IMG/VR virus record: IMGVR_UViG_3300032275_000001
Span: 45,995-109,994 of that record
Length of the DNA: 64,000 nucleotides
Strand: one strand, 5' to 3'
From: a virus
Lineage: Duplodnaviria > Caudoviricetes
Shown: positions 4,632 through 63,044 of the stretch, piece by piece
Layout of the letters: each line of letters starts with the position of its first letter
How positions within the stretch are numbered: position 1 is the first letter of the stretch
Translations under genes and position numbers: made by a program
The notes under the pieces: model-generated
Told to the model about the DNA's origin: nothing
Databases searched by the model: none
Seen by the model: only the letters and a program-made list of their open reading frames with translations

Positions 4632-4687
4632 TAATAATAGTAGTTGTATTGCTTCCCATTATAGAACAGCATACATCTCTTTTTTCC

Positions 4688-4793: not shown

Positions 4794-4796
4794 CAA

Positions 4797-4867
4797 GGCG
4801 GTTTAGTGTAATTGGTAGCATATCGGGCTCATAACCCAATGGCCAGGTTCGAGTCCTGAATCCGCAA
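4797..4867 (+). tRNA. tRNA-Met(CAT), initiator-like, several stem mismatches, no encoded CCA
   Basis: Acceptor GGCGGTT/ATCCGCA, D-arm GTGT-AATTGGTA-GCAT, anticodon arm TCGGG-CTCATAA-CCCAA with three G-C pairs, T-loop GGTTCGAGTCC. Confidence 0.85.
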
Positions 4868-4902
4868 CTAAAATAAACCAAATAAATTAAATTAACTACA
4901 TT

Positions 4903-6655: not shown

Positions 6656-7825
6656 ATGGCTGATTTTTCATTAACCACGTTATTCGTGGTTCCAGTAGGG
6701 CAAGCAACGATCCCTAGCTCTGGTACGAGTTCAACACAAGACCTTACTGCAGGTATTGTGGGCATTTTTAGCAACAACTATGTTCCTGTTAATTCAGGTA
6801 CAATTGCTGCTTCTCCTTATTTCTACATTGCACAAGGAAGAGAAAACACTTACCTTCAAGGTTCTAAAAGATCTGATAAGATATCAGGTAAAAACAATGC
6901 TGGTACAGGAAGTAATGTAACTGAATGGTACAAAGTAACAGGATGCCCAACTGCGGCAAACCAAATTACTGATGTAACTAACTTCTCTGCACAATGTGGT
7001 GATACAATCACACTTACACTTCGTGCTGACAGTTCTTACCTTAGAACTCTTTATTTCAACGGATTTACACGTTCAGTAACTATTCAAGCACCTTGTTGTG
7101 ATTGTGGTGATGATCCATGTGTTGATGTTGATGTAAATGATTTGATTAATCAATTCATTGCAAAATTAACTGCACAAGCTCCTGGTATCAATCCTGACAA
7201 CATTAGCTTGAACAACTTCTACACATTTGAAAATTTTGATGGAACTACTCTGCGTATTACAGGAAAACCTTTAACTCAATATGGACAACCATGTGATGTT
7301 GCTGCGTTCCCTTTTGAATATGACAGAATGACTTTTAGAACTTTTGTATATGCTGGCCCAGCTACTACTGCTGACTTCATTGTTGCAGATTCTTGTAACA
7401 TTGTTGCTAATGCTGTCATCACTCAACGTTCTTCTTATGCTTCAGGACAAGCTGCAGAATTTATCCAATTGGAGAAAAACTTCTATAGCTACCAAGCTGG
7501 TTACTTGAAACACCTTTACAGAATGAATGGTTACAATGAGAACTTTGAGTCTTATGTTTCTGCTGGTAAAACTTATAATTCATTCTATATCAAATTTAAT
7601 GAATATGATAAGTCTGCTTACCAATGGGGTGATTATATCCAAGAAGATTCTACAGTGATTATTGCTATCCCTCAAGGTGGTTATGATCTTACTAGTGACT
7701 TCCAAGATATTTTAGAAGCTGCTTTAGGAACTGTTACAGATGGTAATGATTGTGTAATCACAACCACTACTACATCAACTGCTGCTCCTAGTACAACAAC
7801 AACATCTTCTACTAACATTCCTTAA
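6656..7825 (+). CDS. Putative auxiliary capsid protein with C-terminal Thr/Ser tail
   Basis: Highly-expressed codon bias, followed by a strong terminator, syntenic with the crAss-like auxiliary capsid gene. Ends ITTTTTSTAAPSTTTTSSTNIP. Confidence 0.6.
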   Translation: MADFSLTTLFVVPVGQATIPSSGTSSTQDLTAGIVGIFSNNYVPVNSGTIAASPYFYIAQGRENTYLQGSKRSDKISGKNNAGTGSNVTEWYKVTGCPTAANQITDVTNFSAQCGDTITLTLRADSSYLRTLYFNGFTRSVTIQAPCCDCGDDPCVDVDVNDLINQFIAKLTAQAPGINPDNISLNNFYTFENFDGTTLRITGKPLTQYGQPCDVAAFPFEYDRMTFRTFVYAGPATTADFIVADSCNIVANAVITQRSSYASGQAAEFIQLEKNFYSYQAGYLKHLYRMNGYNENFESYVSAGKTYNSFYIKFNEYDKSAYQWGDYIQEDSTVIIAIPQGGYDLTSDFQDILEAALGTVTDGNDCVITTTTTSTAAPSTTTTSSTNIP

Positions 7826-8578: not shown

Positions 8579-10114
8579 ATGTTAACACCGAGACTAACTA
8601 ATTGTCCTGAATGTGCAGACATTCCTAATTTATTAAAAAGAATAGATTGTAAGTTAGCAGAATATGCTAATGGTCTATACAACAATGTTGTATTTATGTT
8701 GAATCAAGTTGTTCCTGCAAGAGCAATGATTCAACTTTTGGCGTATAAAAGAATCCTTACATACAAACAATGTAATCCAGACTATTTAAGTGATTTCTGT
8801 ATGGATAAGATTGTAAGTAAAGTGATAAGATTAACATTAGGCTGTAATATCAGACCCATTTTTACTCCAACCCCTACAACATCTACAACATCAACATCTA
8901 CTACTTGTCCTCCATATACCACTACCACTACCACTACAACAATATTATATAATTATATTGTACTTAAATGTAATACATCAGAATATTATATTCTTACATA
9001 TGATGGATCTGAATTATTACCACAAGGACTTATAGTAAGTAGTGAAAGTAATGAATGTTGGCAAATAATACAAAGAACTAATGATGTTGGAAGTATGGCA
9101 ATAGTTACACAATTTGGTATGGATGATTGTACAGTTTGTATAGATTCTTTTACTACTACAACTACTACCACCACTTTACCAAATATTCCATGTAATACAA
9201 CTTATAGTTCAGGAGGAAGTGGTGTTACAGAATATAATATACCATTAGATCCTTTAGGAGGAGTAATATTATTTCAATTTAGTGCTAGAAATGTACCTGA
9301 TAAAATTGAAATAATACATGATAATATTAAAAAATCTACATCAGGAATGTTATCAGATGGTAATTCAGGCCCATTTGATGCTTATGGAGAGCCACCAACT
9401 AATTTACCAACTGTTCTTCAAACATATGATATAAATCAATTTATAGGAAAAACTAATTATAATGTAGACCCTCCTATTTTTTATAAAAATATTCAACCTA
9501 TACCAACTAGACAATTAGAACTTTTAGCTGAAACAGGTATTGATTTAACATTAACAGGTAGTTATGAACAATTTGTATGGTGGGTATACACTCCATCAGA
9601 TTATACAATAAACAATAATGTTATTATTAGAATAACAGGTCCTGCAGGCGGTACAACAGGTTGGGATTTACAAAGATTATGTCCTTCACCTACCACTACT
9701 ACAACTACTACTATATGTCAAAGACCAGAAGGTTTAACTAATGGTAATTTAATTTCCTCTTGTCATAATTCAGGAGACCCTGAATGGATTTTCTATAATG
9801 TATCCGTAGAAGATGCTTGTAATGCTTTTAATTATTATAGAGATAATCCTGAAACTGCTGGAACAGGAGTTAATTATTGGGACATGCAATATGATACTTT
9901 AAATATAGACACTTTAGTATATAGATACAATAATGGTACTGATTGTACTTTAATTAATAATGGATATTATTGGTTTCAACCAAACATTAGTGATATAACA
10001 ACATATTTCAAAACTATTAATCAAATAAGTATTGTCACAATAGTAGCTGGATATATTACAGCAATTGACATATGTAATTATATTCCAACAACAACCACAA
10101 CAACAACAATATAA
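8579..10114 (+). CDS. Putative tail hub protein extended by Cys-bounded modules joined by poly-Thr linkers
   Basis: Helical Cys-containing N-terminal ~90 aa, then five Thr-rich tracts separating beta-rich modules. Confidence 0.55.
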   Translation: MLTPRLTNCPECADIPNLLKRIDCKLAEYANGLYNNVVFMLNQVVPARAMIQLLAYKRILTYKQCNPDYLSDFCMDKIVSKVIRLTLGCNIRPIFTPTPTTSTTSTSTTCPPYTTTTTTTTILYNYIVLKCNTSEYYILTYDGSELLPQGLIVSSESNECWQIIQRTNDVGSMAIVTQFGMDDCTVCIDSFTTTTTTTTLPNIPCNTTYSSGGSGVTEYNIPLDPLGGVILFQFSARNVPDKIEIIHDNIKKSTSGMLSDGNSGPFDAYGEPPTNLPTVLQTYDINQFIGKTNYNVDPPIFYKNIQPIPTRQLELLAETGIDLTLTGSYEQFVWWVYTPSDYTINNNVIIRITGPAGGTTGWDLQRLCPSPTTTTTTTICQRPEGLTNGNLISSCHNSGDPEWIFYNVSVEDACNAFNYYRDNPETAGTGVNYWDMQYDTLNIDTLVYRYNNGTDCTLINNGYYWFQPNISDITTYFKTINQISIVTIVAGYITAIDICNYIPTTTTTTTI

Positions 10115-12325: not shown

Positions 12326-12940
12326 ATGACAGTAATAATAACATTAACAACAGCAGGTGCAGATACAGGACCATTCAATCTATTTTCAGATGCAAATGAA
12401 TATACAATAGCATTTGCTATAGGAGTAACTAAAGCAGAATTAGAAGCAGGTTATCCATCTGATTTAGTTCCTGATGGTACAACAACAATTAAAGTACAAT
12501 CTGTTAATAGTTTATGTAATAATTTTGCAGATTTACCTACAGGTATAACTACAACAACCTCTACTACATTACCTCCAATTAACTCTGTAGAATAGCTTAC
12601 TGGTGATTATCCTCCTATTGCTTATGGTATTTCTCCTGGAGATATAATTAGCTTAAGTGGGACTGTTGAAATAATAGGGGACCCTGTTACTTTTAGAGCT
12701 TACGCATTTTTACCTACAGGACCTGGTGATGGTGCTGTAGATACTAGCATAAGTATAGGTAATATTGATGTGGAAATAACAAGTAGATATGTAGATGCTG
12801 TAACACCATATGATAATGGCATAAATCAATACTCTACTTCATTCACCCTTCCAGCAGGAATATATGATTGGAATGTACTTTGTACATTCTCTAATACAGC
12901 ATCTATAGGAGGAGAAGGTGGCATAGATTGGGTACAATAA
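12326..12940 (+). CDS. Thr-linker virion protein interrupted by one in-frame TAG (89 aa, or 204 aa with read-through)
   Basis: TAG at 12593-12595, then 114 further sense codons in the same frame to TAA at 12938-12940, filling the gap to the next gene. Confidence 0.65.
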
Positions 12941-12957
12941 TATAAAAATAAAACCAA

Positions 12958-14157
12958 ATGACAGTACTATTAACATTAACAACTGCTGGATCTGATACAG
13001 GTTCATTTGATCTATATTCTAATTTAGATTATGCTATTCCTTTTGAAACAGGAGTTGGTAAAGCTACATTAGAAGCAGGGTATTCAACAGAGGTTCCAGA
13101 TGGTGCAACTATTGTTAGAATTACATCTACAGGAGATTGTATTAATTCTGTAGATATAACATTAAGATTAGCTGAATGTGATTTAGATGGATATGTAGAA
13201 CAATTAACCACTACAACAACAACAACTATATGTATTCCCCAAACAATATATGCTGGAGAAACATATTATAAATCAGGAAATACAGCACTAGAGTCTGGAT
13301 TAAGAGTAAATAATTATGCTTCTTTTTATCCTAATGGAACTAAAGTATTTTTTACACAACATAATAATGGTTTAGCAGGAGGAAATCCTACAGGTATATA
13401 TGATCCAATTATATCATATGATTTAGCAACTCCATGGGATGTATCCTCTATCATTAAAACTGGAGAGTTACAGTCTTCTAATTCGCCTAATCAATGGTTT
13501 AGTACTCCAGCAGTTACGTCAAACTTAACAACATCTTATGGATCACCACTTGAAAACTTTACAGCAGGGCATACCTTTTCAGAAGATGGTACTAAATTAT
13601 TTACAGCTGGAAAAGATAAAGGATTGCTACAAAAATATACTTTAGGTACTGCTTGGGATATTACTACAATGATTTTTGATTCTTCTACATTAGAATATGT
13701 AGTAATTACAGGAGATAGTTTAACAGCAGTTAAATTTAGTAGTGATGGTTTAATTATGATATTGCTTGGAAATAGTATTACAGCAAGATATGAATTAGTT
13801 TCTCCTTGGGACATAATTGGTGCAACATTGATATTTACTTCTACTGGTAATTCTAGTGATATTGATTTTCAAAATGGTGGTTTATATTTATTTACATTTA
13901 GTGGATCTAATTTAGTTAGAAAAACTTTAGGAAGTCCATATGATATAACAACTATAATTGAAACTCAAACACTAATTACTACAGTAATTCCTCAAGCAAT
14001 ATCTCCAAGAATAGTATTTAAAGATGGATTTAAAGGATACATAAGTACATTTAATAGTTTAGAACCTAGTATAATTTCTGCATTTGAGTTAACATGTGAG
14101 TTTGATATTAGTGGTACTATTCCAACAACAACTACTACTACAACATTACTACTATAA
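12958..14157 (+). CDS. Thr-linker virion protein with beta-propeller-like repeat domain
   Basis: N-terminal domain paralogous to 12326; repeated 'F..DG.K.F...Y.L.TPWDI' blades; two poly-Thr tracts. Confidence 0.6.
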   Translation: MTVLLTLTTAGSDTGSFDLYSNLDYAIPFETGVGKATLEAGYSTEVPDGATIVRITSTGDCINSVDITLRLAECDLDGYVEQLTTTTTTTICIPQTIYAGETYYKSGNTALESGLRVNNYASFYPNGTKVFFTQHNNGLAGGNPTGIYDPIISYDLATPWDVSSIIKTGELQSSNSPNQWFSTPAVTSNLTTSYGSPLENFTAGHTFSEDGTKLFTAGKDKGLLQKYTLGTAWDITTMIFDSSTLEYVVITGDSLTAVKFSSDGLIMILLGNSITARYELVSPWDIIGATLIFTSTGNSSDIDFQNGGLYLFTFSGSNLVRKTLGSPYDITTIIETQTLITTVIPQAISPRIVFKDGFKGYISTFNSLEPSIISAFELTCEFDISGTIPTTTTTTTLLL

Positions 14158-17926: not shown

Positions 17927-20900
17927 ATGGCTGAAGAACAATCACAAGGAAATATAAAACAAGAACTTAACAGTGCTAATATAGGGTTAAACCTAGATAG
18001 CACATTAAATCAAATTAAACAGGGCACGCTCACGTATGCCCTGAATGCTGCTTTAGAAAACTTTGATTCTTCCTCTGTCAACTATCAGAATGAACAAGGA
18101 AATGAATTTTGTGTAAAATTTCCAGAAGAATATGTATTAATAGGAACACATTTTATTAATGAGCAAAGTAAACATATATTCTTTATCACCAATCCAAATA
18201 CAGGAGATAGTGAAATAGGATATATGGATAACAATGATTGTATCTATCGTAAATTAGTTAATGCACCATGCCTTAATTTTAATGTTGACCATCCTATACA
18301 CAAAGCTGTACATAAAATTACAAATTGTACAACAGAAATATATTGGACAGATGGATTCAATCCTAGAAGATATTTAGATTTAAATGATATTCCATATATA
18401 TTAAAAAGTGAGTCTCCTCTTTGTGATCCTAAATATACAGATGAATTAGATTGTAATCAATTAAAACTACAACCTAATTTTAACATTCCAAACCTTGCTA
18501 TTGCAGATATTACTACAGGAGGTTCTCTTCTTGCTGGTACATATCAGTTTGCAGCACAGTATTCTGATGCTGTAGGTAATCCTTTCACTTCTTATTATTC
18601 AATCACCAATCCTACACCAATTGCTGATCCACAGATTGCAACAGTTAACTTTAACTATGTTGTAGGAAAGTCTATTGTTGTTGATGTAAGTAACTTAGAT
18701 TCTTCTGGACAGTTTCAATATTTTAATTTAGCTGTTATTAAAACAGTGAATGCAATTACATCTGTAGAATTAATTGGAACATATTTTATAGATAATACAT
18801 CTTTAAATATAACTTACACAGGACAGATTAATGATAACATTCGTTTATCAATGAATGATGTATTTGAGAAGTTTCCATATTATGATGTAGCAGAAGATTT
18901 AACAGCTGTACAAGACGTTCTTGTATGGGATGGACTTACATCTATAGATAGAATTAATTATCAATCCATAGCCACGCAAATAGATTTGTTGTGGGAAACA
19001 TATCAGATTCCTTCAAATGAAAACTATGCAGATGAATTAAATGCTACAAACCTTAGAGGATATCTTCGTGATGAAGTGTATGCATTTGAAATTGTATTCT
19101 TATTAAAGAATGGAAAACAAACAGATGGTTTCCATATTCCTGGTAGAACATTAACTATACAAGAACAATCTCTTCCAAATATTCATATTACTAATAATGA
19201 TTTTATTGGTGAACCAGAACCAGATACAGATTATAGTCCTTATTGGAAAATATATAATACAGCTTCTGTTATTGGTAATGCTACTGGAGATAAAATTGGT
19301 AATGCCACTCCATATGAATATGGTAATTTTGCATATTGGGAATCAACAGAAAAATATCCATGTAACATAGATCTTTGGGGAGCTCTAGCTGATCAACCAA
19401 TTAGACATCATAAGTTTCCAGATGTATTAGTTAGTCCTATTACACGACCAGCTGTGATATATGATCCTGCAAAGGGTCTTGCTCGTCAAAATAACTATGT
19501 ATATCCAATAGGAGTTAAAATAGATACAGCACAAGTCTATGATTTAATAGATACATCAAATTTAACATCAGATCAAAAAGCTGATATAGTAGGATATAAA
19601 ATAGTAAGAGGAGATAGAGGTACAAATAAATCTATTGTAGCAAAAGGTATTCTTCGTAATGTTGGAGAATATACAAGAGAAGAACAACCTTTTTATTTTC
19701 CTAACTATCCGTATAATGATATTACTGAAGATCCATTTCTTAATGCAAACAATAATGCTTGGTCAGATTTATGTGAAAGATTTATAATAAATGTATTAAA
19801 GCTACCTTCAAAAACAACACTTGGTGTACCTTGTTTAACAATAAGATATGTAAGTTGCAATAGTAATAAAGAATCAACTGAGGAATTTACAACAACAGGT
19901 ATTCATTATATTTGCTCTATAGGTAAACCAACTATAACAAGTCCTGGTGTAACTAATACAATTGATTATAGTCGTGGATGTAATCCAGTACCAAATATAT
20001 CTGATTCAAATTGTATAGGTACAGTTAGTTATGCTGATTATGATGTGTATAAAATAAGATCAGGAAATCATTGTGAATGGCCTGGTTTACAATGTTCTGG
20101 TTGGGGAGCAGAATGGGATGATCCAATTTCTGGACCAGGTGCATATGTATGGATGAAACCAGGTAATAGTTATTGTATACGTGTTAAAAAAGATCAAAAA
20201 CCTTATAGAGTAAGTGGTTCTAGTAAGTGCGGTTGTAATGACATTTCTTTACAATCTACAGTGAGAGATACATCTTGTGGAGCTGTTGCACCACTCACTC
20301 CTATATCAAACAATCCTTCTAGTACGTATAGACAAATATTTAATTCTCCAGAAACTTCTTTTGGTCAACCATTCTTAGGAGATATTCTTAAACTTGAGAA
20401 TGTAATGTTTGGTGCTGGTAAAGCACATTTTGTACCAGTTAAAAGTAATGCCAAGTATAGACTTCTTTCTAAAGAGGCACAAGAAGATGCTCTTGCTAGT
20501 TCCAATAGATTAGCTGCTTATACAAGTCCATTTAATTCCACTGCTATGTGGACAGCATACCAAGCATATTTACAAATATATATAAATGGTATAACTAGAA
20601 GAAACTATGCTTATTCATTTAACTCTACAGCTAGCTATGATTACAATGCAATAATTACTAATAGTGGAGATAAACAGAGAACATTAGATATTAAAAGATA
20701 TTTAATTCCAGGAGTACAAAATGTAGGTGATGATCGCAATGTGAATAACTATCAAAGAGAATCTTCTGTTTATTTAAAAACAGATGAATATAGAGAAGAT
20801 GGTACTACTTCAGTTGCACCATTACCATTTCCTAGTAATAGTACAGAGATGGCTAGTATAGGAATCAAAGATAGATCCAGACTCACTATAGGTGGTAGTG

Positions 20901-23206
20901 GTAGATGTGCTACTCCTGCAAGAGAACAAGATATAACTGTTGTTTCTTATTATGCTTCATTAAAAAATACATTTGTAAATCAATATGGACAGATGTATTC
21001 TTATGATACAATTGATACAGGATTCCAAAGAAGTGTAACAGCTAATACTTCTGCTACAATATTTGGAGGAGATACATTTATATCTAGGTTTGCATTTAAA
21101 ACTAAGCTTCCTTTCTTTATAGACAATAGAGTTAATGCTCCTGATGATAGTGATATATTCTATGATGAGATTGGTAACATAGCTTATCCAAAATATTGGC
21201 ACTCAGCTAGATCTATTCTATCAGATTATACAGCTAAATCAGGCACACTATCTAATGTAATTTCATACAAAGCTCATGAGTTTGATTGTCCTAATGATCA
21301 ACGTCTAGTACCATCAACAGCTAAATCAGATACTAATCCTAATAGAACATTCTATGATGGATATTTTTATTTGTTTGCATATGGTATTCCTAACTTCTAT
21401 TGTGAGAGTTCTTATAACACAGACCTAAGACAAGCATTCAATAACAAAGAAGGGGACTTCTGGCCACATGTATCAACAGGTATTCCTGATGATTGGATGC
21501 AAGAAGATTTTGTATCAATAGCAAATGATAATACATATACATATAATGTAACATTCTCTAAACAAAATAAAGAAAATACATTTACGCATTTACCAGCAGA
21601 TTATAATGGAAATCCATGTTATACATACTACCCATTTAGAGCTGTATACTCAGATGCACAAAACACTGATGCTGACAATAGAGTGAATAGTTGGTTAACA
21701 TACAGAGCTATTTCTTATTATGACTTTCCTCAGAACTATGGTAAACTTATATCATTAGATGGTATTCAAAACAAAGCTGTATTAGCTAGGTTTGAAAACA
21801 AAACATTAATGTATAACAACCTCCTTACAATTGATACAAGTAATCCACAAGCTGCATATGTAGGTAATCCTAATATGTTCAAAGGAGCACCTCCTATTGA
21901 CTTTGCAGAAACAGATCTTGGATACGTAGGTAGTCAAAACAAAATGTTATTAAAGATTCCTCAAGGGCAAATTACAGTTGATGCAAAAAGAGGACAAGTG
22001 TTTCTTATACAAGGAACACAAGTAGAAGACTTATCTGCATTTGGTTCTGGAATGAATAGATTCTTTACAGACCATTTAGCTTTTGAAATACTTAGATATT
22101 TTCCAAAAGTAGATACAGATAACAATTTTAATGGTATAGGATTACATGGTGTATATGATAGTAAGTTTGATAGAGTTATACTTACTAAATTAGATTATAT
22201 TCCATTGAGTAATAATATTAAATATGATCCTACAACAAGAGATTTCTACATAGAAGAATCTTTAGGAAATAATATTTTATTTAAAACAATAGTAAGTTTA
22301 AAAGATTCAGATTATTTCTGTAATAAATCTTGGACTCTTTCATTTAATGTAAATACTAAAAGTTGGGTAAGCTTTCATAGTTATATTCCTAATTGGTATA
22401 TAGCAGAAAACAATTTCTTTTATTCTGGTATAAATGGGTGTTGTGATGAGTTTGATTTTGTTGCAGGAGAATTAGTTCCTACACCAAGTACCACTACTAC
22501 TAGTAGCAGCACATCTACAACCACTACTACATCAACAACACAAGTACCATTAGATTGTACATTAGAAGGAGAAGTAACATTAACTAATTGTGAATTAGAA
22601 GGAACAGGTGTAATCACTATACCTCCTATACCACCACCATGTCAAAGACCTATGAATTTACCAGTATTTGAATTTATAACAGGATATAATATAATATATC
22701 CTCCTTCAACAGTTGTATCTACAGGAAGTCAAGCAGATGCTTGTGACTCTATGAACTACTACAATGAAATTTTTGGACTAGATCCAAATGTAGAATTTAA
22801 TGATATTTTAGCAGAAGTTGTAAATATTGAAATTAATCAAACTGTATATGATGGTACAACAGGTACAGATTGTACATTGATACCTGATGGTTGGTATTAT
22901 ACAGATGAGACAGCAGGTAGTAGTAATGTATTCAGTGTAGTTAATGGTATAATAACTGAAATAGTTAATTGTCCTTCAGATACAACAACAACAACTACTA
23001 CATCACCAAATTGTTTCTCATTTACAGTGCGTAAATCAACACCAGGTACTGTAGCAGTAACTTATATTGATTGTTCAGGAGAACCAGCAAGTGTGAATAT
23101 TGGTAACCCATCACCAGGTGGACCTACTGAAACAACATTCTGTGCACGTAATGGAAGTATAGTTGTACCTGCTGAGGTAACATTAAGTAATAATGGATCT
23201 TGTTAA
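17927..23206 (+). CDS. Tail stabilisation / muzzle protein, main part, with appended poly-Thr-linked modules
   Basis: 1759 aa with 'IYWTDG.NPRRY', 'GYLRDEVYAF.IVF', 'FGGDTFI', 'WTLSF....SWVSFHSYIP' typical of crAss-like stabilisers. Confidence 0.75.
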   Translation: MAEEQSQGNIKQELNSANIGLNLDSTLNQIKQGTLTYALNAALENFDSSSVNYQNEQGNEFCVKFPEEYVLIGTHFINEQSKHIFFITNPNTGDSEIGYMDNNDCIYRKLVNAPCLNFNVDHPIHKAVHKITNCTTEIYWTDGFNPRRYLDLNDIPYILKSESPLCDPKYTDELDCNQLKLQPNFNIPNLAIADITTGGSLLAGTYQFAAQYSDAVGNPFTSYYSITNPTPIADPQIATVNFNYVVGKSIVVDVSNLDSSGQFQYFNLAVIKTVNAITSVELIGTYFIDNTSLNITYTGQINDNIRLSMNDVFEKFPYYDVAEDLTAVQDVLVWDGLTSIDRINYQSIATQIDLLWETYQIPSNENYADELNATNLRGYLRDEVYAFEIVFLLKNGKQTDGFHIPGRTLTIQEQSLPNIHITNNDFIGEPEPDTDYSPYWKIYNTASVIGNATGDKIGNATPYEYGNFAYWESTEKYPCNIDLWGALADQPIRHHKFPDVLVSPITRPAVIYDPAKGLARQNNYVYPIGVKIDTAQVYDLIDTSNLTSDQKADIVGYKIVRGDRGTNKSIVAKGILRNVGEYTREEQPFYFPNYPYNDITEDPFLNANNNAWSDLCERFIINVLKLPSKTTLGVPCLTIRYVSCNSNKESTEEFTTTGIHYICSIGKPTITSPGVTNTIDYSRGCNPVPNISDSNCIGTVSYADYDVYKIRSGNHCEWPGLQCSGWGAEWDDPISGPGAYVWMKPGNSYCIRVKKDQKPYRVSGSSKCGCNDISLQSTVRDTSCGAVAPLTPISNNPSSTYRQIFNSPETSFGQPFLGDILKLENVMFGAGKAHFVPVKSNAKYRLLSKEAQEDALASSNRLAAYTSPFNSTAMWTAYQAYLQIYINGITRRNYAYSFNSTASYDYNAIITNSGDKQRTLDIKRYLIPGVQNVGDDRNVNNYQRESSVYLKTDEYREDGTTSVAPLPFPSNSTEMASIGIKDRSRLTIGGSGRCATPAREQDITVVSYYASLKNTFVNQYGQMYSYDTIDTGFQRSVTANTSATIFGGDTFISRFAFKTKLPFFIDNRVNAPDDSDIFYDEIGNIAYPKYWHSARSILSDYTAKSGTLSNVISYKAHEFDCPNDQRLVPSTAKSDTNPNRTFYDGYFYLFAYGIPNFYCESSYNTDLRQAFNNKEGDFWPHVSTGIPDDWMQEDFVSIANDNTYTYNVTFSKQNKENTFTHLPADYNGNPCYTYYPFRAVYSDAQNTDADNRVNSWLTYRAISYYDFPQNYGKLISLDGIQNKAVLARFENKTLMYNNLLTIDTSNPQAAYVGNPNMFKGAPPIDFAETDLGYVGSQNKMLLKIPQGQITVDAKRGQVFLIQGTQVEDLSAFGSGMNRFFTDHLAFEILRYFPKVDTDNNFNGIGLHGVYDSKFDRVILTKLDYIPLSNNIKYDPTTRDFYIEESLGNNILFKTIVSLKDSDYFCNKSWTLSFNVNTKSWVSFHSYIPNWYIAENNFFYSGINGCCDEFDFVAGELVPTPSTTTTSSSTSTTTTTSTTQVPLDCTLEGEVTLTNCELEGTGVITIPPIPPPCQRPMNLPVFEFITGYNIIYPPSTVVSTGSQADACDSMNYYNEIFGLDPNVEFNDILAEVVNIEINQTVYDGTTGTDCTLIPDGWYYTDETAGSSNVFSVVNGIITEIVNCPSDTTTTTTTSPNCFSFTVRKSTPGTVAVTYIDCSGEPASVNIGNPSPGGPTETTFCARNGSIVVPAEVTLSNNGSC

Positions 23207-48600: not shown

Positions 48601-51600
48601 GCTAATAGAAAAACAGGAGCAATGCCTCAATTGCTAAGTATTAAGATTGGTGATGTAAATGTTAAAAATATACAAGAGGATTATTTAATTCCTGTAGGTC
48701 TTGAAGCTGAAAAAACTGGAAACAAAAAGATTGATGGCTTATTAGAAAAACTAAATGGTATCTATAAAAAACTTTCTGCAGAGAAAGCTCTTCCTTCAGA
48801 AAAAATAAATAAAGCTGAGCAATTGAATGCTTTGTTTTCTGCTATTAGACAATTGCAAATGAAACAAAACATTGCTCCATTGTTATATCAAGCAAAAATA
48901 TTAAACAAACAAATTGAAGCTACTATAGATATATATAATACTAAATTCAAGGGTCAGGATAAATCTAAATTTACTGAGCCTGAAATTAGTGAATTCTCAA
49001 ATACATTAGAAGTTATACAGCAAGCTTTAGATTCTTATATAAATCTAGATACAGAATTAAAATTCTTATTTCAAGGTGAATTATCTGAAGAAGATAAGAA
49101 GTTAAAAGAAGAACTTAGAGATACAGTTGATAATGCTAGAGAGTACAAGGATCAATTAAAAGATGTTGATATAGAATATATTGAAAATATAGTTGGTGGA
49201 TCTGCTACAGCTGAGAAGATAGTAAAAGGACTAACTAAATGGTTTGGCAACACTGCTACAATTCAATTGAAAGCATTAGATGTGCTATTTAAAAAATCTA
49301 ATAAAGCATATGCTTTAGCTGGAATGGATGTTCAAACAGAAGTTAAAAGACTAACTGATATAAAGAGTTCTTTTGAAAAGTGGGCATCAGCCAAAGGACT
49401 TAGTGTTAAAAATCAATTTGATTTACTTAAGAAGAAAGAGTCTAATGAATTAATCGATGAGTTCGATCCTAAGTTCTATTCTACATTAAAAGAAAAGATT
49501 AAAGATAAAGACATTAGTTGGATCAAAGATAATGTAGATGTAGAAGCATATAGAAAATATCTTGAAGAAAAAAGAGAGGAAGAGTATCAAAGAATTGATG
49601 ATAAGGCTGCGTACAGAGTAGGTAGCGAAGAACAAATTAATAAAGATATAGCTAGAGAGAAATCTAAAGTGAGTGATCTTTATAATATTCTATCAGATAA
49701 ATCTGTAGGATGGTTACTTGAAAATGATATAAAGAAGTTTCCTAAAAGAGAAACTTGGGAATCTGCTAACTGGAAAGAATTAAATAAACCAGAGAATGCT
49801 CCAGCTAAAGAGTTCTATGATTATATTAAAGAAAGAAATCAATATTACCAAAGTATAGGATATATAAATGCAGCTGATGCTAGAACGTTTCTTCCATGGG
49901 TTAGAAAAAGTTTTACAGAAAAACTTATATTTGGTGGGAATGTTACAATAGGAGAACAGTTCTTAAGAAACATATCTGTTGATGAAGGAGACACAGGATA
50001 TGGAGCGATTGACCCTAATACAGGTAAACCAATTGACACTATACCTAGATACTTAACAGGTAAGATAAATGGAGAAGTATCTACAGATTTATTTAAAACT
50101 ATGGCAATGTACAATGAGTTTGCTATTAAGTTTAAATATTTAACAGATATAGAAGCACAGGGTAGAGCTCTTGTTAGATTGGAAAGAAATAAAAAAGCTA
50201 TTGCAACATCTTATTTTGGTAAAACTGAATATAAAGATGGTGTACTACAATATAATCCAGATAACACAGAGAACACTAAACTAGTTGAGGATATGGTAAA
50301 AGCTATTATCTATCAACAACAATATATACAAAGTGATACATTTGATCAAGTGCTAGGAACATTTGGTAAGTTAGGTGAAAGAGTTAATAAAAAGTTAGGG
50401 ATGAAAATACTTCCTGAAAACTTAGAAGGAAGACAAGTTTCTGTAAACAAAGTAGTTACACAATTAAATAATTCATTCCAAGTGATGACATTAGGATTGA
50501 ACCCTCTATCTTCTTTGTCAAATTTATTTGGTGGTAAGACACAATCATTTATAAACTCAGGTAAGTATTTTACTAAGACAGATTTTGTAACTACAGAGAT
50601 GTGGTTATTAGGAAATAAAATGGGTGGACAAGATAAACAAAAAGCATTAGCTGCTTTAGATTATTTCATTCCATTCACTGATAATTATAATAGACAGGCT
50701 GCTACAAAACTTTCTCTAAATAAGTTAAATGATGAGGCTGTTCAAGATTTTCTTATGGTTATGATGAGAAGTGGTGAGGAGTCTGTACAGACTACTAACT
50801 TCTTTAGCTTTATAAAGAATTCAATTGTATTAGATGCTCAAGTGATTAATACTAGAGAGTATTTAAAATCAACTGATGAATATAGAGACTTCTATGCAGG
50901 AACACAAAGTGAAAGAGATGCTAGAGCTACAAAGTTTGAAGAAGATGTAAAAGCTCTTAATGAAGAGAAAGGTGTTTTACAATTAGGAAAAGTTGTTGAG
51001 GGTGAGTTTGTAATTCCTGGTGTAGAAAGAAAGTCTGATTCTGTAATAGAACTTAGAAGAAAGGTGCAACAGTTCACTAGTGATGCATTAGGAAACTTAA
51101 CAGAAGAGAACAAACGTTTAATCAACTTAAATGTATATGGTAAATCATTCATGGTGTTCAAGAACTGGATTCCTAGACTTGTAGATGTACGTATGGGTAA
51201 TGTTAAATATAATTCTGCTTCTGATGCATATGAATGGGGAAGAACTAGAATGTTTGTTAGAATGATATCTGAAGATCTAATGGGATCTGTAGGAAACATC
51301 ATTAATACATTACAAGGAAATGATAAGGGGATGGCATTTGTTAGAGAACTCTATGAAAAAAAGAAAGCTGATTATGAAACTGATACTAATAAAGAGTTTC
51401 AAATGACAGAGGCTGAGTTCACTGATCTTGTTAAACAGAATTTAAAAAATCAAATTGTAGATTTCTTATTCTATGCAGGATTGTTTGCATTATATCTAGG
51501 AGTGAAAGCACTTGCACCTGATGATGATGAGGACCCAGCAGTAAGAAATCAACACAAGTTTGCATTAAAAGCAATTGATAAACTTAGAGATGAGATTGGA

Positions 51601-51882
51601 TATTTCTATGATCCAACTAGTATTGGTACATTAGTATCAGGAGGAGTATTTCCATCAGTACAATTGTTAACTAATTATAGAAAGGCATTAAGTAGTTTCT
51701 TAGTTGAAAATTATGCAATTGCAACAGGAGATGAAAAACTAGAAGAAAAGAATAAAGTGATTAAATACTGGATGAAATCTTTCAAGGTGACTAATCAAAT
51801 GTCAGCTCTGCTACCTTTATTTTCACCAGAGCTTGCAAAAGATCTTGACATCAGAATGCAATCAAAATTTGGTATTAGGTAG
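45679..51882 (+). CDS. Large multidomain virion protein with PD-(D/E)xK nuclease-like and zincin-like domains
   Basis: KGTAGH...AGTVDFL...VNILDWK (48361-48432), PEEAMHF (~47520), N-terminal ILEVQSD domain. Confidence 0.7.
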   Translation: MANCPNKNLEEWKLLVASRGEDVAYYLWDKYNTRVPESESKIEIVKTGLKATNILQSPKADQFFGAVAKNKISGDFFWKKMQADLGVPKDQLEILKSFNTQDRGELISSLLANYSFAIEINTAKTKDTLTSYEESGGVSAFKRDGKYYMSDPDVGESNEITKEAYDQWIKDSKTFLDKNADYYSNLTVPGGTNYTENEIATPAITPSIKGHAQFATDQGIGWFRSDEQAVVTSPENVEDDIDLWTAKKVNGKIIVPTNKATKTRRILEVQSDLFQKGRDRKNLTGIPTNSVITAALFENEEYSFELNDYAYDAVVEDIYYEEENQTEPTTVYYKNGMRISNKEMEIAKKEYEKQNIPQSKNQFLQLLNQGSNWVTFFVKSIIQDSAKKGYEKVLFPSGETAAKVEGHETLANQLQTMNQDLENFKSDLEIEKTALAKLESFRKLKEEELYEYNLTKDSLEREITNVEGSIVSTDTKINQVEAKIKNYKDNGIGKLKPIENFYENTVKNVLNKQYGKENVKQVTDEYGNTWNEINIVPEREQQPIMLQKKEGPIPTSASSKTIAALKDFIKRIGVDIKNVKDIVIDGVRQDANGAAFMMQKLIQVVEGKEAQALPEEAMHFAIEIIEQKNPKLFNQFLKEITDYTIYNEVLRDYSDDPKYQTPEGKPDIRKLKKEAIGKVLAEVIINQSEGISEHPEKIAKVETWWSKIVDYLTNLFTTSGFDKASMDILSGKSIGTAEDIVDGGVYLQKTEQTKQEQIYNSIKEIASKIKKEDDGYSIDGKKIGERVSDIVAKWYKRRLGEGSLTNDEFTNTVNDLKATKGTAGHADLEHAFEIFVDENGKLRDEILNDDGYVSQLNPNDRTMYDILKKNLQDRLATFPKGTIFMSEATLYDAKRDLAGTVDFLAITPEGKVNILDWKFMDLNTNKYEDIPWYKINAWNIQMEQYKYMISRVYNVKNENFEQTRMIPIKAVYSEANRKTGAMPQLLSIKIGDVNVKNIQEDYLIPVGLEAEKTGNKKIDGLLEKLNGIYKKLSAEKALPSEKINKAEQLNALFSAIRQLQMKQNIAPLLYQAKILNKQIEATIDIYNTKFKGQDKSKFTEPEISEFSNTLEVIQQALDSYINLDTELKFLFQGELSEEDKKLKEELRDTVDNAREYKDQLKDVDIEYIENIVGGSATAEKIVKGLTKWFGNTATIQLKALDVLFKKSNKAYALAGMDVQTEVKRLTDIKSSFEKWASAKGLSVKNQFDLLKKKESNELIDEFDPKFYSTLKEKIKDKDISWIKDNVDVEAYRKYLEEKREEEYQRIDDKAAYRVGSEEQINKDIAREKSKVSDLYNILSDKSVGWLLENDIKKFPKRETWESANWKELNKPENAPAKEFYDYIKERNQYYQSIGYINAADARTFLPWVRKSFTEKLIFGGNVTIGEQFLRNISVDEGDTGYGAIDPNTGKPIDTIPRYLTGKINGEVSTDLFKTMAMYNEFAIKFKYLTDIEAQGRALVRLERNKKAIATSYFGKTEYKDGVLQYNPDNTENTKLVEDMVKAIIYQQQYIQSDTFDQVLGTFGKLGERVNKKLGMKILPENLEGRQVSVNKVVTQLNNSFQVMTLGLNPLSSLSNLFGGKTQSFINSGKYFTKTDFVTTEMWLLGNKMGGQDKQKALAALDYFIPFTDNYNRQAATKLSLNKLNDEAVQDFLMVMMRSGEESVQTTNFFSFIKNSIVLDAQVINTREYLKSTDEYRDFYAGTQSERDARATKFEEDVKALNEEKGVLQLGKVVEGEFVIPGVERKSDSVIELRRKVQQFTSDALGNLTEENKRLINLNVYGKSFMVFKNWIPRLVDVRMGNVKYNSASDAYEWGRTRMFVRMISEDLMGSVGNIINTLQGNDKGMAFVRELYEKKKADYETDTNKEFQMTEAEFTDLVKQNLKNQIVDFLFYAGLFALYLGVKALAPDDDEDPAVRNQHKFALKAIDKLRDEIGYFYDPTSIGTLVSGGVFPSVQLLTNYRKALSSFLVENYAIATGDEKLEEKNKVIKYWMKSFKVTNQMSALLPLFSPELAKDLDIRMQSKFGIR

Positions 51883-59928: not shown

Positions 59929-60188
59929 TAAGACTATTTAAATACATAGAACCATTATGGTTAGGGACCAACAGTAAGATATCTATACGCAAAATCTTAT
60001 CGTTGGCTTTTTCTATTGATTTAATACGCAACATATCATATACAATACATAACTGGGAAATAGGTAAATCATATTCTGATGTAGCTATGTTACTAGGACT
60101 AGAGGCTGCTCTTATAGCTGCTCTACTATCACTCACCACATATTCAACTATGGTGGCAAATAAAAAATCAAATACAGAAATAGACTAA
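59925..60188 (+). CDS. Putative holin
   Basis: 87 aa, 'KISIRKILSLAF' plus a hydrophobic helix, immediately upstream of the endolysin. Confidence 0.5.
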   Translation: MIRLFKYIEPLWLGTNSKISIRKILSLAFSIDLIRNISYTIHNWEIGKSYSDVAMLLGLEAALIAALLSLTTYSTMVANKKSNTEID

Positions 60189-60604
60189 TGGTAACAAGTG
60201 CACAAGCTTTAAAGAAATACGGAGACCCAACTAAAGAATCTGGTATGACATTATGGGATGTACCAAAAGAATTAGAAATAGGCGTTCTACCTAAGAGATT
60301 ATATTGTAACAAAGATATGATCCTACCACTAACCAAAGCTTTTAAAAATCTCATATCTACAGGATGTGTTAAGGAATTAAAAACTTGGGATGGGTGTTTC
60401 AACATTCGTAAGAAAAGAGGACTTGCATCAATGTCTTTACATTCATGGGGAATAGCCATTGATGTAAACGCTGCATGGAATGGTTTAAACAAAGAACCAC
60501 AACTAAGTAAAGAGTTTGTTAATTGTTTTACATTAGCAGGATTTGATTGGGGAGGAATCTGGACAAGAAAAGATGGAATGCACTTCCAATTAAAAACTAT
60601 ATAA
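60188..60604 (+). CDS. Endolysin, peptidase M15 family
   Basis: R...SLHSWGIAIDVN...WGG.W...DGMHFQL motifs. Confidence 0.9.
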   Translation: MVTSAQALKKYGDPTKESGMTLWDVPKELEIGVLPKRLYCNKDMILPLTKAFKNLISTGCVKELKTWDGCFNIRKKRGLASMSLHSWGIAIDVNAAWNGLNKEPQLSKEFVNCFTLAGFDWGGIWTRKDGMHFQLKTI

Positions 60605-60607
60605 ACC

Positions 60608-60745
60608 ATGGCAAAACAAACCAATACAGTACAGAAGAGAGTGAAGGTTAAAGTGAGTAGACCAGGCATTCATTCTAAAAACAAAACATCAAAACTTAAA
60701 TCTTCCAAGAATTACAAAAAAAGTTATTCTGGGCAAGGTAGATAA
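60608..60745 (+). CDS. 45-aa highly basic peptide (not in ORF track)
   Basis: MAKQTNTVQKRVKVKVSRPGIHSKNKTSKLKSSKNYKKSYSGQGR. Confidence 0.6.
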   Translation: MAKQTNTVQKRVKVKVSRPGIHSKNKTSKLKSSKNYKKSYSGQGR

Positions 60746-60808
60746 CTTTTTTGATTATTTTAATTCATTAACAATTATGTATGTTTACATAAATTATTTA
60801 TATTTTTG
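60742..60808 (+). promoter_or_regulatory. Promoter with upstream ATAAC-N7-ATTAT box
   Basis: ATAACTTTTTTGATTAT 60742-60758 (16/17 identical to 14222-14238); TATTTTTG 60801-60808. Confidence 0.6.
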
Positions 60809-60832
60809 TAACTACCAAACAAACAATCAATT

Positions 60833-60973
60833 ATGGCAATACCAGCTAAACAAGTCGGCCAATCAGCAGAAGCAAATCTTTTGTGGCAAATATCTAAGCA
60901 GTTGGAACTTTTAATTAAAGTGACAGCAGCTAACAATCCTACTACCACTACCACTACCACTCCTGCCCCTTAA
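60833..60973 (+). CDS. 46-aa microprotein with poly-Thr tail (not in ORF track)
   Basis: MAIPAKQVGQSAEANLLWQISKQLELLIKVTAANNPTTTTTTTPAP. Confidence 0.7.
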   Translation: MAIPAKQVGQSAEANLLWQISKQLELLIKVTAANNPTTTTTTTPAP

Positions 60974-61006
60974 TTGCAAAATTAAAACATAATAAACCAA
61001 CTACAT

Positions 61007-62023
61007 ATGAAAGATTTAAAATTTGTGCAAGCTTGCCCAAGTGATGTATATTATACATGGCAAGTTCATTTATGGCTTGAAAGCTTAAGAAACATTGGAC
61101 ATAGTGATAAAGCTATATCAGTGATATTCACACCTAAGGGAAGAGAGAATAGAGACAAATGGAAACAGATAGAAGACCTCTATCCAGAATCAGAGTTTCA
61201 TTATTACAATGATGAAGACAATTTAAATCAACTACTAGGGATATATATCCCTGTACTAAGACCATATGTACTTTGGAAACATTTCAAAGCTAATCCAGAA
61301 CTAAGTGAGAAAGCAATATTCTATTGTGATTCAGATATTCTGTTCACTAAAGATTTCAATGTAGATGAGTTCTTAGATGATGATGTTAACTACCTATCAG
61401 ATACAAACAGCTACATCAATGCTACATATTTTGATAGTAAAATAAGAGATGTTCTCTCAGAGAAGCTAGAAGCATACAAAACAAGAGATGTTCTTGGAGA
61501 AATAGCTAGTGTTATTGGTATAGATAGAGCAACATGTGAAGCTAACAACCTACACTCAGGAGGAGCACAATATCTACTAAAGAATGTAGATGGTGAGTTC
61601 TGGAGTAAGGTGATGAATGATTGCATTCTTATTAGAACCTATTTACAAACAGTGAATAGAGAATATTTTAAAGATGAGAATACAGGATATCAATCATGGT
61701 GTGCAGATATGTGGGCTGTTCTTTGGAACTTATGGTTTAGAGAACAAGAAACAAAAGTGGTTCCTGAACTAGCATTCACCTGGGCAACAGATCCTATATC
61801 TAAACTAGACAGTCATACAATCTTTCATAATGCAGGAATAACAGGAGTATCAATGAATGGATATCCTTGTTTCTACAAAGGAAAATATCATCAAGGAACT
61901 GACCCTACAAAAGATCCACACTTAGATGATGTATTAAATAACACAGAATCACAGAAGTATTGCACATGGTTCTATGCAAATGAACTAAATAACATAAAAA
62001 ATAAATATAACCTTAATTATTAA
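61007..62023 (+). CDS. GT-A glycosyltransferase resembling plant peptidyl O-glycosyltransferases (HPAT / SGT1)
   Basis: YYTWQ, YIPVLRPYVLWKHF, YCDSDILF (DxD) and WCADMWA occur in the same order as the HPAT/SGT1 motifs. Confidence 0.7.
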   Translation: MKDLKFVQACPSDVYYTWQVHLWLESLRNIGHSDKAISVIFTPKGRENRDKWKQIEDLYPESEFHYYNDEDNLNQLLGIYIPVLRPYVLWKHFKANPELSEKAIFYCDSDILFTKDFNVDEFLDDDVNYLSDTNSYINATYFDSKIRDVLSEKLEAYKTRDVLGEIASVIGIDRATCEANNLHSGGAQYLLKNVDGEFWSKVMNDCILIRTYLQTVNREYFKDENTGYQSWCADMWAVLWNLWFREQETKVVPELAFTWATDPISKLDSHTIFHNAGITGVSMNGYPCFYKGKYHQGTDPTKDPHLDDVLNNTESQKYCTWFYANELNNIKNKYNLNY

Positions 62024-62028
62024 ATATC

Positions 62029-62433
62029 ATGAACAAACGTGACTTAAAAGCGTATTCACGCTTCGATGGAACTGGTAGAATTGTACCAGGAAGTACTGTA
62101 CTTAGACGTCAAAAACCTAAAGTGGGAAATTGGAAAGAAGTTCCAGCATATGAATGCTGTAATGATGTAACATTAACATTTACACCTTCTTCTCCAATAA
62201 TTAGCGATGTAACATTAAGACTTTTTTGTAATGGTACACAGATAAATTATTTGTATACACCAAGTGATTCTACTACTATTGAATCATTAGTTAATATATT
62301 AAATAATACATTTAATGTATTAGGAACATTTACAAATCCTAGTGGAAACATTATCCAACTAGTAATGAGTGGTGCACAAAAAACTGCACTATGTCCTGTA
62401 GGAACATTAACATTTGATGTTATTGCTGACTAA
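62029..62433 (+). CDS. Hypothetical protein whose N-terminal 45-aa domain is shared with the next ORF
   Basis: LKAY.RFDG.GR.V.GS..LR..KPKVG.W.E..AY.CCN followed by a variable beta domain. Confidence 0.65.
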   Translation: MNKRDLKAYSRFDGTGRIVPGSTVLRRQKPKVGNWKEVPAYECCNDVTLTFTPSSPIISDVTLRLFCNGTQINYLYTPSDSTTIESLVNILNNTFNVLGTFTNPSGNIIQLVMSGAQKTALCPVGTLTFDVIAD

Positions 62434-62446
62434 TTAAAAAAATAGG

Positions 62447-62620
62447 ATGAACAGTAGACCTTTAAAAGCTTATGTAAGATTTGATGGATCTGGACGTGTA
62501 GTCTCAGGTAGTCTTATATTGCGCAAAAACAAACCAAAGGTGGGTAAGTGGCAAGAGATTACAGCATATCAGTGTTGTAATCCAACCACTAGTACAACTA
62601 CAACATCACCAACACCTTAA
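62447..62620 (+). CDS. 57-aa paralog with Thr/Ser/Pro tail (not in ORF track)
   Basis: MNSRPLKAYVRFDGSGRVVSGSLILRKNKPKVGKWQEITAYQCCNPTTSTTTTSPTP. Confidence 0.75.
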   Translation: MNSRPLKAYVRFDGSGRVVSGSLILRKNKPKVGKWQEITAYQCCNPTTSTTTTSPTP

Positions 62621-62630
62621 CATTTAAACT

Positions 62631-63044
62631 ATGGCACTAAAATCACTATTCCCAGAAGAAATGATGGGAGATAAAGGTTCTAGTCTTACATTAGAGACTA
62701 TTGCAGGAAAGCTTACTCATATACAAGAACAATTGCATTTATTGCATTGGCAAACAACTAGTTATGCAGAGCATAAAGCTCTTGGAAAGTTGTATGAATA
62801 TGTACAGGATTTCAAAGATGGTGTGGTTGAGAAACTTATGGGATATACAGGTAAAAGACCTGGAGCTTATAAAATAGAACCTCTTGGTGGAGCAAATGCT
62901 ACATCTGTTGTTTCTGAACTTATGAGCTTTGCATCATCATTAAAAGCATATGGTGAAAAGAATTCCTATCACGATGTATGTAATCTTGCAGATAGTTTAT
63001 CTGGAGAAGCAGCTAAAACTAAATTCTTATTAACATTGTCATAA
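62631..63044 (+). CDS. Ferritin/Dps-like four-helix protein
   Basis: LHLLHWQT.SYAEHKALG.LYE....D..VE..MG motif. Confidence 0.75.
   Translation: MALKSLFPEEMMGDKGSSLTLETIAGKLTHIQEQLHLLHWQTTSYAEHKALGKLYEYVQDFKDGVVEKLMGYTGKRPGAYKIEPLGGANATSVVSELMSFASSLKAYGEKNSYHDVCNLADSLSGEAAKTKFLLTLS

Follow-up and report, generated by a model that had tools for sequence, protein, structure and literature searches.

In the final 64 kb of a 109,994-bp IMG/VR virus record (IMGVR_UViG_3300032275_000001, rated 96% complete), which represent the late half of the genome of an uncultured phage and are hereafter referred to as the window, we found that a glycosyltransferase (GT) gene is flanked by genes of two modular protein families, whose small members typically end in runs of about seven threonines. 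On balance, we favor the explanation that this enzyme is a cytoplasmic O-glycosyltransferase decorating poly-Thr stalks of virion-displayed proteins. As we envisage it, the soluble, metal-dependent GT-A enzyme would be made late in infection in the host cytoplasm and would transfer sugar from a host nucleotide sugar, in O-linkage, onto blocks of about seven Thr residues while virions are being assembled or beforehand. The products of the flanking genes and the poly-Thr proteins of the structural module would serve as clients of the enzyme. The short N-terminal modules of the flanking proteins (A and B) would dock these proteins on the virion, and the T7-xAP blocks that follow would make up a mucin-like stalk, stiff and glycosylated. 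At the C-terminus an exchangeable head, which is lectin-, leucine-rich repeat (LRR)- or adhesin-like in relatives and a small, apparently novel domain in the 134-aa protein encoded here, would complete the protein, with the stalks holding lectin- or LRR-type heads away from the particle. The headless 46-aa and 57-aa proteins would then be bare glyco-stalks forming a glycan coat that might serve for shielding, adhesion or stability. Glycosylated Thr-Pro segments are stiff and protease-resistant. A broader version, which we offer tentatively, is a cross-phylum "glyco-stalk" system, in which a single GT family might read a code of about T7/xAP on capsid, tail-tube, fibre and decoration proteins and turn it into mucin-like bottle-brush stalks. 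In the lineage of the phage studied here, which is of Bacteroidota type, such a system would combine two virion-anchor modules with any adhesin head, or with none at all in the case of 46-57-aa glycan bristles.

The enzyme at the center of this proposal is a 338-aa protein (61007..62023, + strand). It matches phrog_4417, a phage protein family of unknown function, over nearly its entire length (E = 1.9e-53; residues 5-330 on profile positions 2-291 of 293), and in the 90% database 2725 proteins are related to it at E ≤ 1e-3; at 50% identity there are 763 representative clusters. Pfam assigned no family at E ≤ 1 to the protein and none to six annotated phage homologues, and neither sequence nor profile searches against PDB sequences returned anything useful. 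The AlphaFold2 model, built like the calls of invariant residues on a 71-sequence family alignment, has a pLDDT of 97.2. A Foldseek search of PDB with this model gave 155 hits at E ≤ 1e-3, and among the matches listed almost all are GT-A enzymes. Glycogenin-1 ranks first (E = 2e-6) and is followed by WbbM, the catalytic domain of UGGT, XXYLT1 and alpha-1,3-galactosyltransferase; the top matches have E values of about 2e-6 and TM-scores of 0.42-0.46 by query and 0.50-0.58 by target at 9-14% sequence identity. In the viral fold library BFVD, which yielded 121 hits at E ≤ 1e-3, uncharacterised phage homologues lead (among them Orf49 of Lactobacillus phage LP65, TM-score 0.73), and giant-virus GT8-type enzymes come next. 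The DxD motif, contained in CDSD as D108/D110, is invariant in all 71 sequences and stands directly after strand 103-107; Y80, Y136, F257, H274, K291 and Y323 are further invariant positions. The GT-A fold and the invariant DxD bear out the original prediction, made from the DNA sequence of this region, that the protein is a glycosyltransferase, and the motifs it had singled out (YYTWQ, YIPVLRPYVLWKHF, CDSD and WCADMWA) are all found in the translation, on conserved columns of the family alignment. Judged by the model, the protein is a GT-A fold enzyme closest to retaining GT8-type enzymes, and its fold neighbors suggest a retaining mechanism. GT2, GT6, Gly_transf_sug and methyltransferase domains occur as fusion partners in longer relatives, as expected for glycan-building enzymes. 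Since the first beta strand of the model begins at residue 4, there is no room for a signal peptide or membrane anchor, and the enzyme is therefore predicted to be soluble. Of the fold neighbors, glycogenin, UGGT and XXYLT1 have proteins or protein-linked glycans as substrates. A complex prediction for the GT with the 57-aa protein scored 0.01; controls were not folded, and we draw no inference from this value.

Although GT8-type enzymes (glycogenin, XXYLT1, the UGGT catalytic domain and WbbM) provide the best fold matches and share the invariant DxD, the 338-aa protein belongs to a separate sequence family, being 9-14% identical to them and having no match to the Pfam GT8 model PF01501 at E ≤ 1. 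The same model found nothing at E ≤ 10 in five GT-bearing phage records while matching in 6 of 14 control genomes. In GT8 enzymes the DxD is followed by a second metal-ligand His and a diphosphate-binding Lys; H274 and K291, both invariant, might correspond to these residues. Kinship to plant enzymes, namely hydroxyproline arabinosyltransferase (HPAT, GT95) and peptidyl-serine galactosyltransferase (SGT1, GT96), had been proposed from motif resemblance, and only a trace of it survives. The HPAT family PF23452 is the Pfam family matched by most relatives, yet these are just 2 of 71, with a best E value of 0.012, and in one related viral Atlas cluster 10% of the members are labelled HPAT. Against this, neither the protein of the window at E ≤ 1 nor any of the six phage homologues matches the family, and GT95 or GT96 structures are absent from the PDB fold matches listed. 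When run directly, PF23452 matched none of the five phage records, a result uninformative alone because the model was equally silent in the 14 control genomes. Thus, the motif resemblance may be real but reflect very remote kinship, and membership of the 338-aa protein in GT95 is not supported. The proposed chemistry is nevertheless alike, in that sugars would be placed on consecutive hydroxy-amino acids within extended segments resembling extensin or mucin. The plant enzymes are Golgi-resident and have an N-terminal membrane anchor, whereas the phage enzyme is predicted to be soluble and anchorless, and its putative acceptor is Thr rather than Hyp or Ser.

The genes on both sides of the GT encode putative acceptors. 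All four ORFs described for this locus are present on the + strand: a 46-aa ORF (60833..60973), in which an N-terminal module is followed by a single T7 block and PAP (PTTTTTTTPAP at the end), the GT, a 134-aa ORF (62029..62433) and a 57-aa ORF (62447..62620), in which a module of a second type runs directly into PTTSTTTTSPTP and the protein ends in CCNPTTSTTTTSPTP. The 134-aa and 57-aa proteins are indeed paralogs, 63% identical over their shared N-terminal 45 or so residues. To see how general this arrangement is, we considered 80 related IMG/VR loci (L001-L080; GT identity 64-98%), in which modules were sought by tblastn. The family-A module of the 46-aa protein occurs upstream of the GT in 72 of the 80 loci, often in two to four copies, and the family-B module of the 57-aa and 134-aa proteins occurs downstream in 77; loci that lack a module are mostly those cut short. 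The expectation that the small ORFs would be conserved next to the GT is thus confirmed. ORF extraction from these loci yielded 114 different family-A proteins, ranging from 44 to 682 aa, and 118 proteins of family B. Module A has the consensus MAIP..Q.G....NLLWQISKQLE.L..V, and module B retains the invariant residues L6, A8, R11, D13, G14, R17, S22, P30, G33, C43 and C44. Differences between members fall mainly on the third codon position (75788/55086/105060 over the three positions for A and 88067/60517/162716 for B), and 41% (A) and 49% (B) of differing codon pairs are synonymous. Because they are conserved beside the GT and carry this coding signature, both small ORFs are genuine genes. 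Pfam recognized no family in either microprotein, and modules A and B were not found elsewhere in the window, in the Chryseobacterium phage MA9V-3 or in the Firmicutes loci discussed below, beyond the three copies already described.

In 72 of the 114 family-A and 87 of the 118 family-B proteins the module leads straight into a Thr/Ser run, and the association is nearly absolute for members of up to 100 aa, which end in a poly-Thr tail in 46 of 46 (A) and 72 of 75 (B) cases. The runs mix ACT, ACA and ACC codons, indicating selection at the protein level rather than slippage at the level of DNA. Their length peaks sharply at seven residues (52 of 102 runs in A and 136 of 186 in B), with eight as the next most common value, and the spacers between the blocks are mostly VAP, AAP and IAP. 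Similar T5-T8 blocks, with KP, AP and VKP as spacers, were seen in the tails of Firmicutes phage proteins. In longer members the modules are followed by cargo domains, including LRR_5 (3e-28), Fib_succ_major (2.5e-40), Laminin_G_3 (2.5e-17), DUF285 (6.5e-15) and Lcl_C (8.3e-10); the LRRs are of BspA type and the lectins are ConA-like. The folded domains behind the modules reach about 640 aa. Among ten long members of each family, three (A) and seven (B) have no Pfam family, and three more A members have sub-threshold matches only. The AlphaFold2 model of the 134-aa protein (pLDDT 85.9) depicts module B (residues 1-45, ending in ECCN) as a small beta-rich unit, followed by an alpha/beta cargo domain of about 88 aa. 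Orthologues of this domain (75-84% identity) occur in the related loci L004, L011, L037 and L041, and a fold search with the model gave no PDB hits at E ≤ 1e-3 and Atlas scores of 0.90-0.92, which lie within the chance range; by sequence and predicted structure it appears to be a small novel domain without known relatives. A cargo domain of about 67 aa follows module A in some proteins and module B in others, and it also lies between two Thr runs of a 511-aa protein of the window (see below), implying that domains have been shuffled at Thr junctions. Taken together, these observations indicate that the 46-aa and 57-aa ORFs are minimal members, with module and stalk only, of two modular families whose members consist of a module, T7-xAP blocks and then either nothing or an adhesin- or lectin-like domain. 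This agrees with the earlier idea that an N-terminal module of about 45 aa is followed by a folded domain in some proteins and by a Thr tail in others, as first noticed in the 134-aa and 57-aa proteins and now seen in their relatives as well.

Poly-Thr is not confined to the proteins flanking the GT, but is a property of the whole virion module, a feature that the original prediction had overlooked. Thr makes up 6.75% of residues, so that about 2e-4 T7 runs would be expected in some 33,700 residues, whereas Thr runs are observed in 7 of the 134 ORFs of the genome. Two of the seven encode the microproteins flanking the GT; the structural module contributes the other five, of which four have a run at or near the C-terminus. 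Within the 134 ORFs, none of the early half of the genome has such a run. The five, all on the + strand, are a 389-aa protein of phrog_15060 (6656..7825), whose C-terminal tail TTTTTST AAP STTTTSST NIP makes it a candidate acceptor; the 511-aa protein (8579..10114), in which small Cys-flanked domains are joined by five Thr runs, the last of them C-terminal; an 89-aa protein (12326..12595) with a near-C-terminal TTTTSTT run; a 399-aa protein (12958..14157) with an internal T7 and a C-terminal PTTTTTTTLLL; and a 1759-aa virion-module protein (17927..23206) with two Thr/Ser-rich linkers near its C-terminal end. None of them possesses module A or B. Residues 125-191 of the 511-aa protein correspond to the shared cargo domain of relatives' A and B proteins (36-40% identity, E = 1e-10 to 1e-12). 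Its domains, about five in number, are separated by T7-T10 runs hugged by Cys residues (for example, C..DSF-T8-LPNIPC), and Thr runs hugged in the same way were noted in GT-positive IMG/VR records.

If the enzyme and the Thr tracts belong together, they might be expected to coincide in other phages, and this is what we observed. A tblastn search with the GT matched 77 of 50,697 phage records, mostly phages of Lactobacillus, Enterococcus, Staphylococcus, Lactococcus and Clostridium. We examined six GT-bearing annotated phages, infecting Chryseobacterium, Enterococcus (two phages), Lactococcus, Clostridium and Staphylococcus. In all six the GT lies inside the structural module and has Thr-rich neighbors; their GT regions (113 kb) contain 16 Thr-rich runs, of which 11 come within 12 residues of the stop codon, including runs in major tail and capsid proteins. 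The GT comes directly after Thr-tailed tail or capsid genes in phiFL1A, 1706, phiCTP1, SA2 and VPE25, and in siphophages it belongs to the late structural operon, where the tail-tube gene stands on one side of it and the tail-chaperone genes on the other. For instance, in phiFL1A the homologue follows a major tail protein ending in NGTTTTTSTTTTTTSSTTTTTTTQASSK, and an upstream 332-aa protein ends in T5-KP-T5-KP-T7. The capsid/protease protein of phage 1706, its "major structural protein" encoded just before the GT and its putative holin all end in T7-T10, T5-xAP-T6-type tails terminate three structural proteins of phiCTP1, and VPE25 and SA2 both have a tail protein with T8-T10 at its end, as well as an overlapping Thr-rich frame behind a capsid or tail gene. 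In MA9V-3, the Thr tracts are long and internal and belong to the products of the two genes preceding the GT. By contrast, in seven GT-less phages serving as controls (phiCD119, sk1, TP901-1, phiEf11, phi11, SPP1 and 1-16 kb of Che8; 262 kb) there was one marginal run and none at a C-terminus (6/6 versus 0/7, p of about 6e-4). The claim that an enzyme and its likely poly-Thr acceptors are encoded side by side thus gains considerably in scope, as the pairing recurs across phyla.

Several peculiarities of these phages deserve mention. The two poly-Thr proteins of MA9V-3 (L081:2615-3352 and 3718-5004) share an N-terminal module of about 45 aa of their own, unlike both A and B, which suggests that the design of an anchor module followed by a Thr stalk arose more than once. 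A Thr-rich frame of 93 codons in SA2 (L086:11649-11927) lies immediately ahead of the GT and overlaps, in a different reading frame, the major tail gene at its 3' end; a 52-codon Thr-rich frame in VPE25 (L085:8462-8617) is placed likewise and overlaps a capsid-region gene in the same manner. These may be programmed-frameshift extensions adding a long poly-Thr tail to a fraction of the subunits; gp17.1* of SPP1 is a precedent for a frameshift-extended tail subunit. The "putative holin" of 1706, encoded by orf3 (L083:964-1368), has T7 five residues before its stop codon, so either the annotation is wrong or Thr tails extend beyond virion proteins.

The coincidence was also examined from the opposite direction. 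IMG/VR records were retrieved by (ACN)10 or, as controls, by (GAN)10, and each was searched for the GT family. It was present in 8 of 60 searchable (ACN)10 records and in 0 of 39 (GAN)10 records (one-sided Fisher p = 0.015). All eight positives were among the 48 records in which T10 is read in an open frame of at least 60 aa, and in five positives represented by whole contigs the GT and the run share a strand, with the run 236-624 nt upstream.

How well, then, does glycosylation of the Thr tracts account for these data compared with other explanations? We infer that Thr is the acceptor mainly from the coincidence of the enzyme family and acceptor-like tracts in unrelated phages; the GT8-like fold neighbors that act on proteins are no more than suggestive. 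A number of observations weigh against it. Attachment of modules A and B to the virion is pure inference and the least supported step, because the modules have no fold or family match; the one hint of docking, an Atlas match of 0.90 to a cluster of crAss auxiliary capsid proteins, is within the chance range. No sugar-nucleotide enzymes are encoded in the genome according to a Pfam scan, so the donor sugar is not indicated. The GT-less controls were hand-picked rather than chosen at random, and the statistics ignore relatedness among the GT-bearing phages. The enrichment in IMG/VR is modest, and none of the six records with T10 within 12 residues of a stop codon is GT-positive, the runs in GT-positive records being internal linkers. 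In four metatranscriptome runs contigs of relatives span parts of the locus; as DNA carry-over is possible, this is a hint of expression at most. Finally, 40 of the 48 records with a coded T10 have no GT in the fragment available, which means that poly-Thr linkers also exist without the phrog_4417 enzyme. The last point equally favors a simpler possibility, that the poly-Thr segments are ordinary unmodified linkers or tails, that the GT acts elsewhere and that their co-occurrence reflects shared ancestry or a genomic hot spot. Thr-rich linkers are common in secreted bacterial proteins, and the case for glycosylation is here built on sequence, predicted fold and co-occurrence. We nevertheless regard unmodified linkers as an unlikely explanation, since unrelated lineages, whose hosts belong to different phyla, show the same pairing, with the GT right behind a Thr-tailed tail or capsid gene; Thr tails are absent from the GT-less phages of the same host genera; and the sharp mode at T7 would be unexpected for a simple spacer.

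Phage GTs that alter host surface polymers, as in serotype conversion, are well known (PMC12619734). The enzyme might accordingly act during infection on a glycan of the host envelope (lipopolysaccharide, teichoic acid or capsule), with exclusion of superinfecting phages or easier release as possible benefits. The presence of WbbM, an O-antigen enzyme, among the top fold matches and the polysaccharide-type GT2 domains fused in relatives would fit such a role, but the modeled enzyme lacks a membrane segment, the siphophage GT sits in the late structural operon, and the association with poly-Thr would be left unexplained. We therefore think this role rather improbable. Glycosylation of hydroxymethylated bases in phage DNA as a protection against restriction is a common function among phage GTs, and yet it fits the present data poorly and seems very improbable. 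The early region (74 ORFs) contains 17 Pfam families at E ≤ 1e-5, all related to replication or recombination, and at this threshold neither a hydroxymethylase, a TET/JBP enzyme, a second GT nor a sugar-nucleotide enzyme is among them; moreover, the GT gene is located in the late region and, in relatives, within the structural module. An equally poor fit, and one to which we give hardly any credence, is the RiPP-like glycopeptide locus considered in the original prediction, where the microproteins would be RiPP- or glycocin-like precursors with a leader and a glycosylated Thr core, exported as bioactive glycopeptides. A conserved N-terminus with a variable C-terminus, the conserved Cys residues and the adjacent GT are reminiscent of such precursors. 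However, the same "leaders" head proteins of up to 682 aa with large, folded, adhesin-like domains, the scanned neighbors (the M15 endolysin, DUF5856 and unknowns) include no protease, exporter or immunity family, the locus belongs to the late region of a lytic phage and lies beside an endolysin, and five structural proteins of the virion module carry poly-Thr without either module. The suggestion of a RiPP-like locus can thus be set aside.

Glycosylation of virion proteins would not be without precedent. According to two accounts, mycobacteriophages glycosylate the C-termini of capsid and tail-tube proteins with their own GTs, the proposed enzymes being Che8 gp110 and Corndog gp38, and virion glycosylation, which blunts antibody recognition, is experimentally known only in a few of these phages (PMC12363180 and PMC12619734, citing Freeman 2023). 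The likeness to what we propose lies in a phage GT linked to capsid and tail-tube genes, and in Firmicutes relatives the likely acceptors are also such C-termini. The differences are nonetheless substantial. The capsid and tail-tube C-termini of Che8 (...NKTGS and ...YSDGS) have no poly-Thr. Mycobacterium phages are absent from the 77 tblastn matches of the GT, so the two enzyme families differ at the BLAST level. In addition, the putative T7-xAP acceptors, which for the present phages are deduced from sequence, would include inter-domain stalks and dedicated microproteins. Another obvious analogy is provided by the O-glycosylated Thr/Pro linkers of secreted bacterial glycoside hydrolases and of eukaryotic mucins, which likewise consist of Thr blocks with Pro-containing spacers between domains. 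Those linkers are expected to be extended and protease-resistant when glycosylated, and they are modified in the periplasm or secretory pathway, whereas the phage proteins have no signal peptides, the enzyme would be cytoplasmic and is phage-encoded, and the block length is fixed at seven. In the literature searched, which took in few subscription papers and no supplements, we found no account of a function for phrog_4417, of Thr-tailed virion proteins or of glycosylation of poly-Thr virion tails. Relative to the mycobacteriophage precedent, novelty would lie in the enzyme family, in a different acceptor architecture of great simplicity, in a much wider host range and in modular display involving dedicated microproteins.

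Should O-glycosylation of the poly-Thr stalks hold true, phages of Enterococcus, Staphylococcus, Lactococcus, Lactobacillus, Clostridium and Bacteroidota would join those with glycosylated virions, as would an abundant uncultured lineage of aquatic and sediment phages, and the orphan phage family phrog_4417 would gain a function. This would bear on the immunogenicity of therapeutic phages, on the biology of dairy phages and on the sticking of phages to mucus or particles. T7-xAP might then also represent a very short encodable glycosylation tag, served by a single soluble enzyme, for use in glyco-engineering. Irrespective of glycosylation, two classes of conserved genes for proteins below 60 aa are real, even though gene callers easily miss such genes.

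As for expression of the locus, the four ORFs are separated by gaps of 33, 5 and 13 nt, and a further 10 nt separate the last of them from the downstream gene. The single promoter postulated for them is backed weakly: TATTTTTG (60801..60808, + strand), 32 nt upstream of the 46-aa ORF, matches TAnnTTTG, and no such box precedes the following five genes, whereas a sigma-70 scan gave no excess of sites (13 versus 16.9 +/- 3.8 in shuffled sequences). In an RNA library, a contig from a relative joins module B straight to a Thr-coding stretch that replaces the cargo of the 134-aa protein (joint 62162->62618). A second joint, 60986->62631, seen in one RNA run, was rejected as a probable tail-to-tail mismatch of similar Thr-coding ends (side 37, likeness threshold 80). 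Across the genome, TAnnTTTG, the Bacteroidota -7 promoter consensus, is enriched within 60 nt upstream of ORFs (14 of 134, versus a 4.3% background), and Shine-Dalgarno-like cores precede only 6 of 134 ORFs, less often than the 8.5% background in random sequence. These weak signals indicate that the host of the lineage is probably Bacteroidota-like. We infer the host from them alone because the capsid protein has a single and remote cultured relative, in a Leptolyngbya phage (26% identity), and a megablast search of the locus against phages gave no match. DNA of the lineage occurs in sediment, lake and freshwater metagenomes at shares of at least 0.29.

The window has a G+C content of about 31%, and its + strand carries nearly all the genes; a capsid gene (phrog_11589), tail-fibre-like genes and giant ORFs are followed by the lysis region. 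The two giant ORFs of the virion module, both on the + strand, encode proteins of 3929 aa (33886-45675) and 2067 aa (45679-51882). The remaining 46 kb of the record encode RecA, a family-A DNA polymerase, DnaB, endonuclease VII and similar proteins. Directly downstream of the 57-aa ORF lies a gene (62631..63044, + strand) matching DUF5856 in Pfam and phrog_858 ("starvation-inducible regulator") in PHROG, and this neighbor is present in 70 of the 80 related loci. The locus is preceded by an M15 endolysin gene (60188-60604, identified by Pfam). Between the endolysin and the 46-aa ORF there is a very Lys-rich 45-aa ORF (60608-60745), which is kept in 32 of the 80 related loci at 42-98% identity and thus represents a third conserved microprotein.

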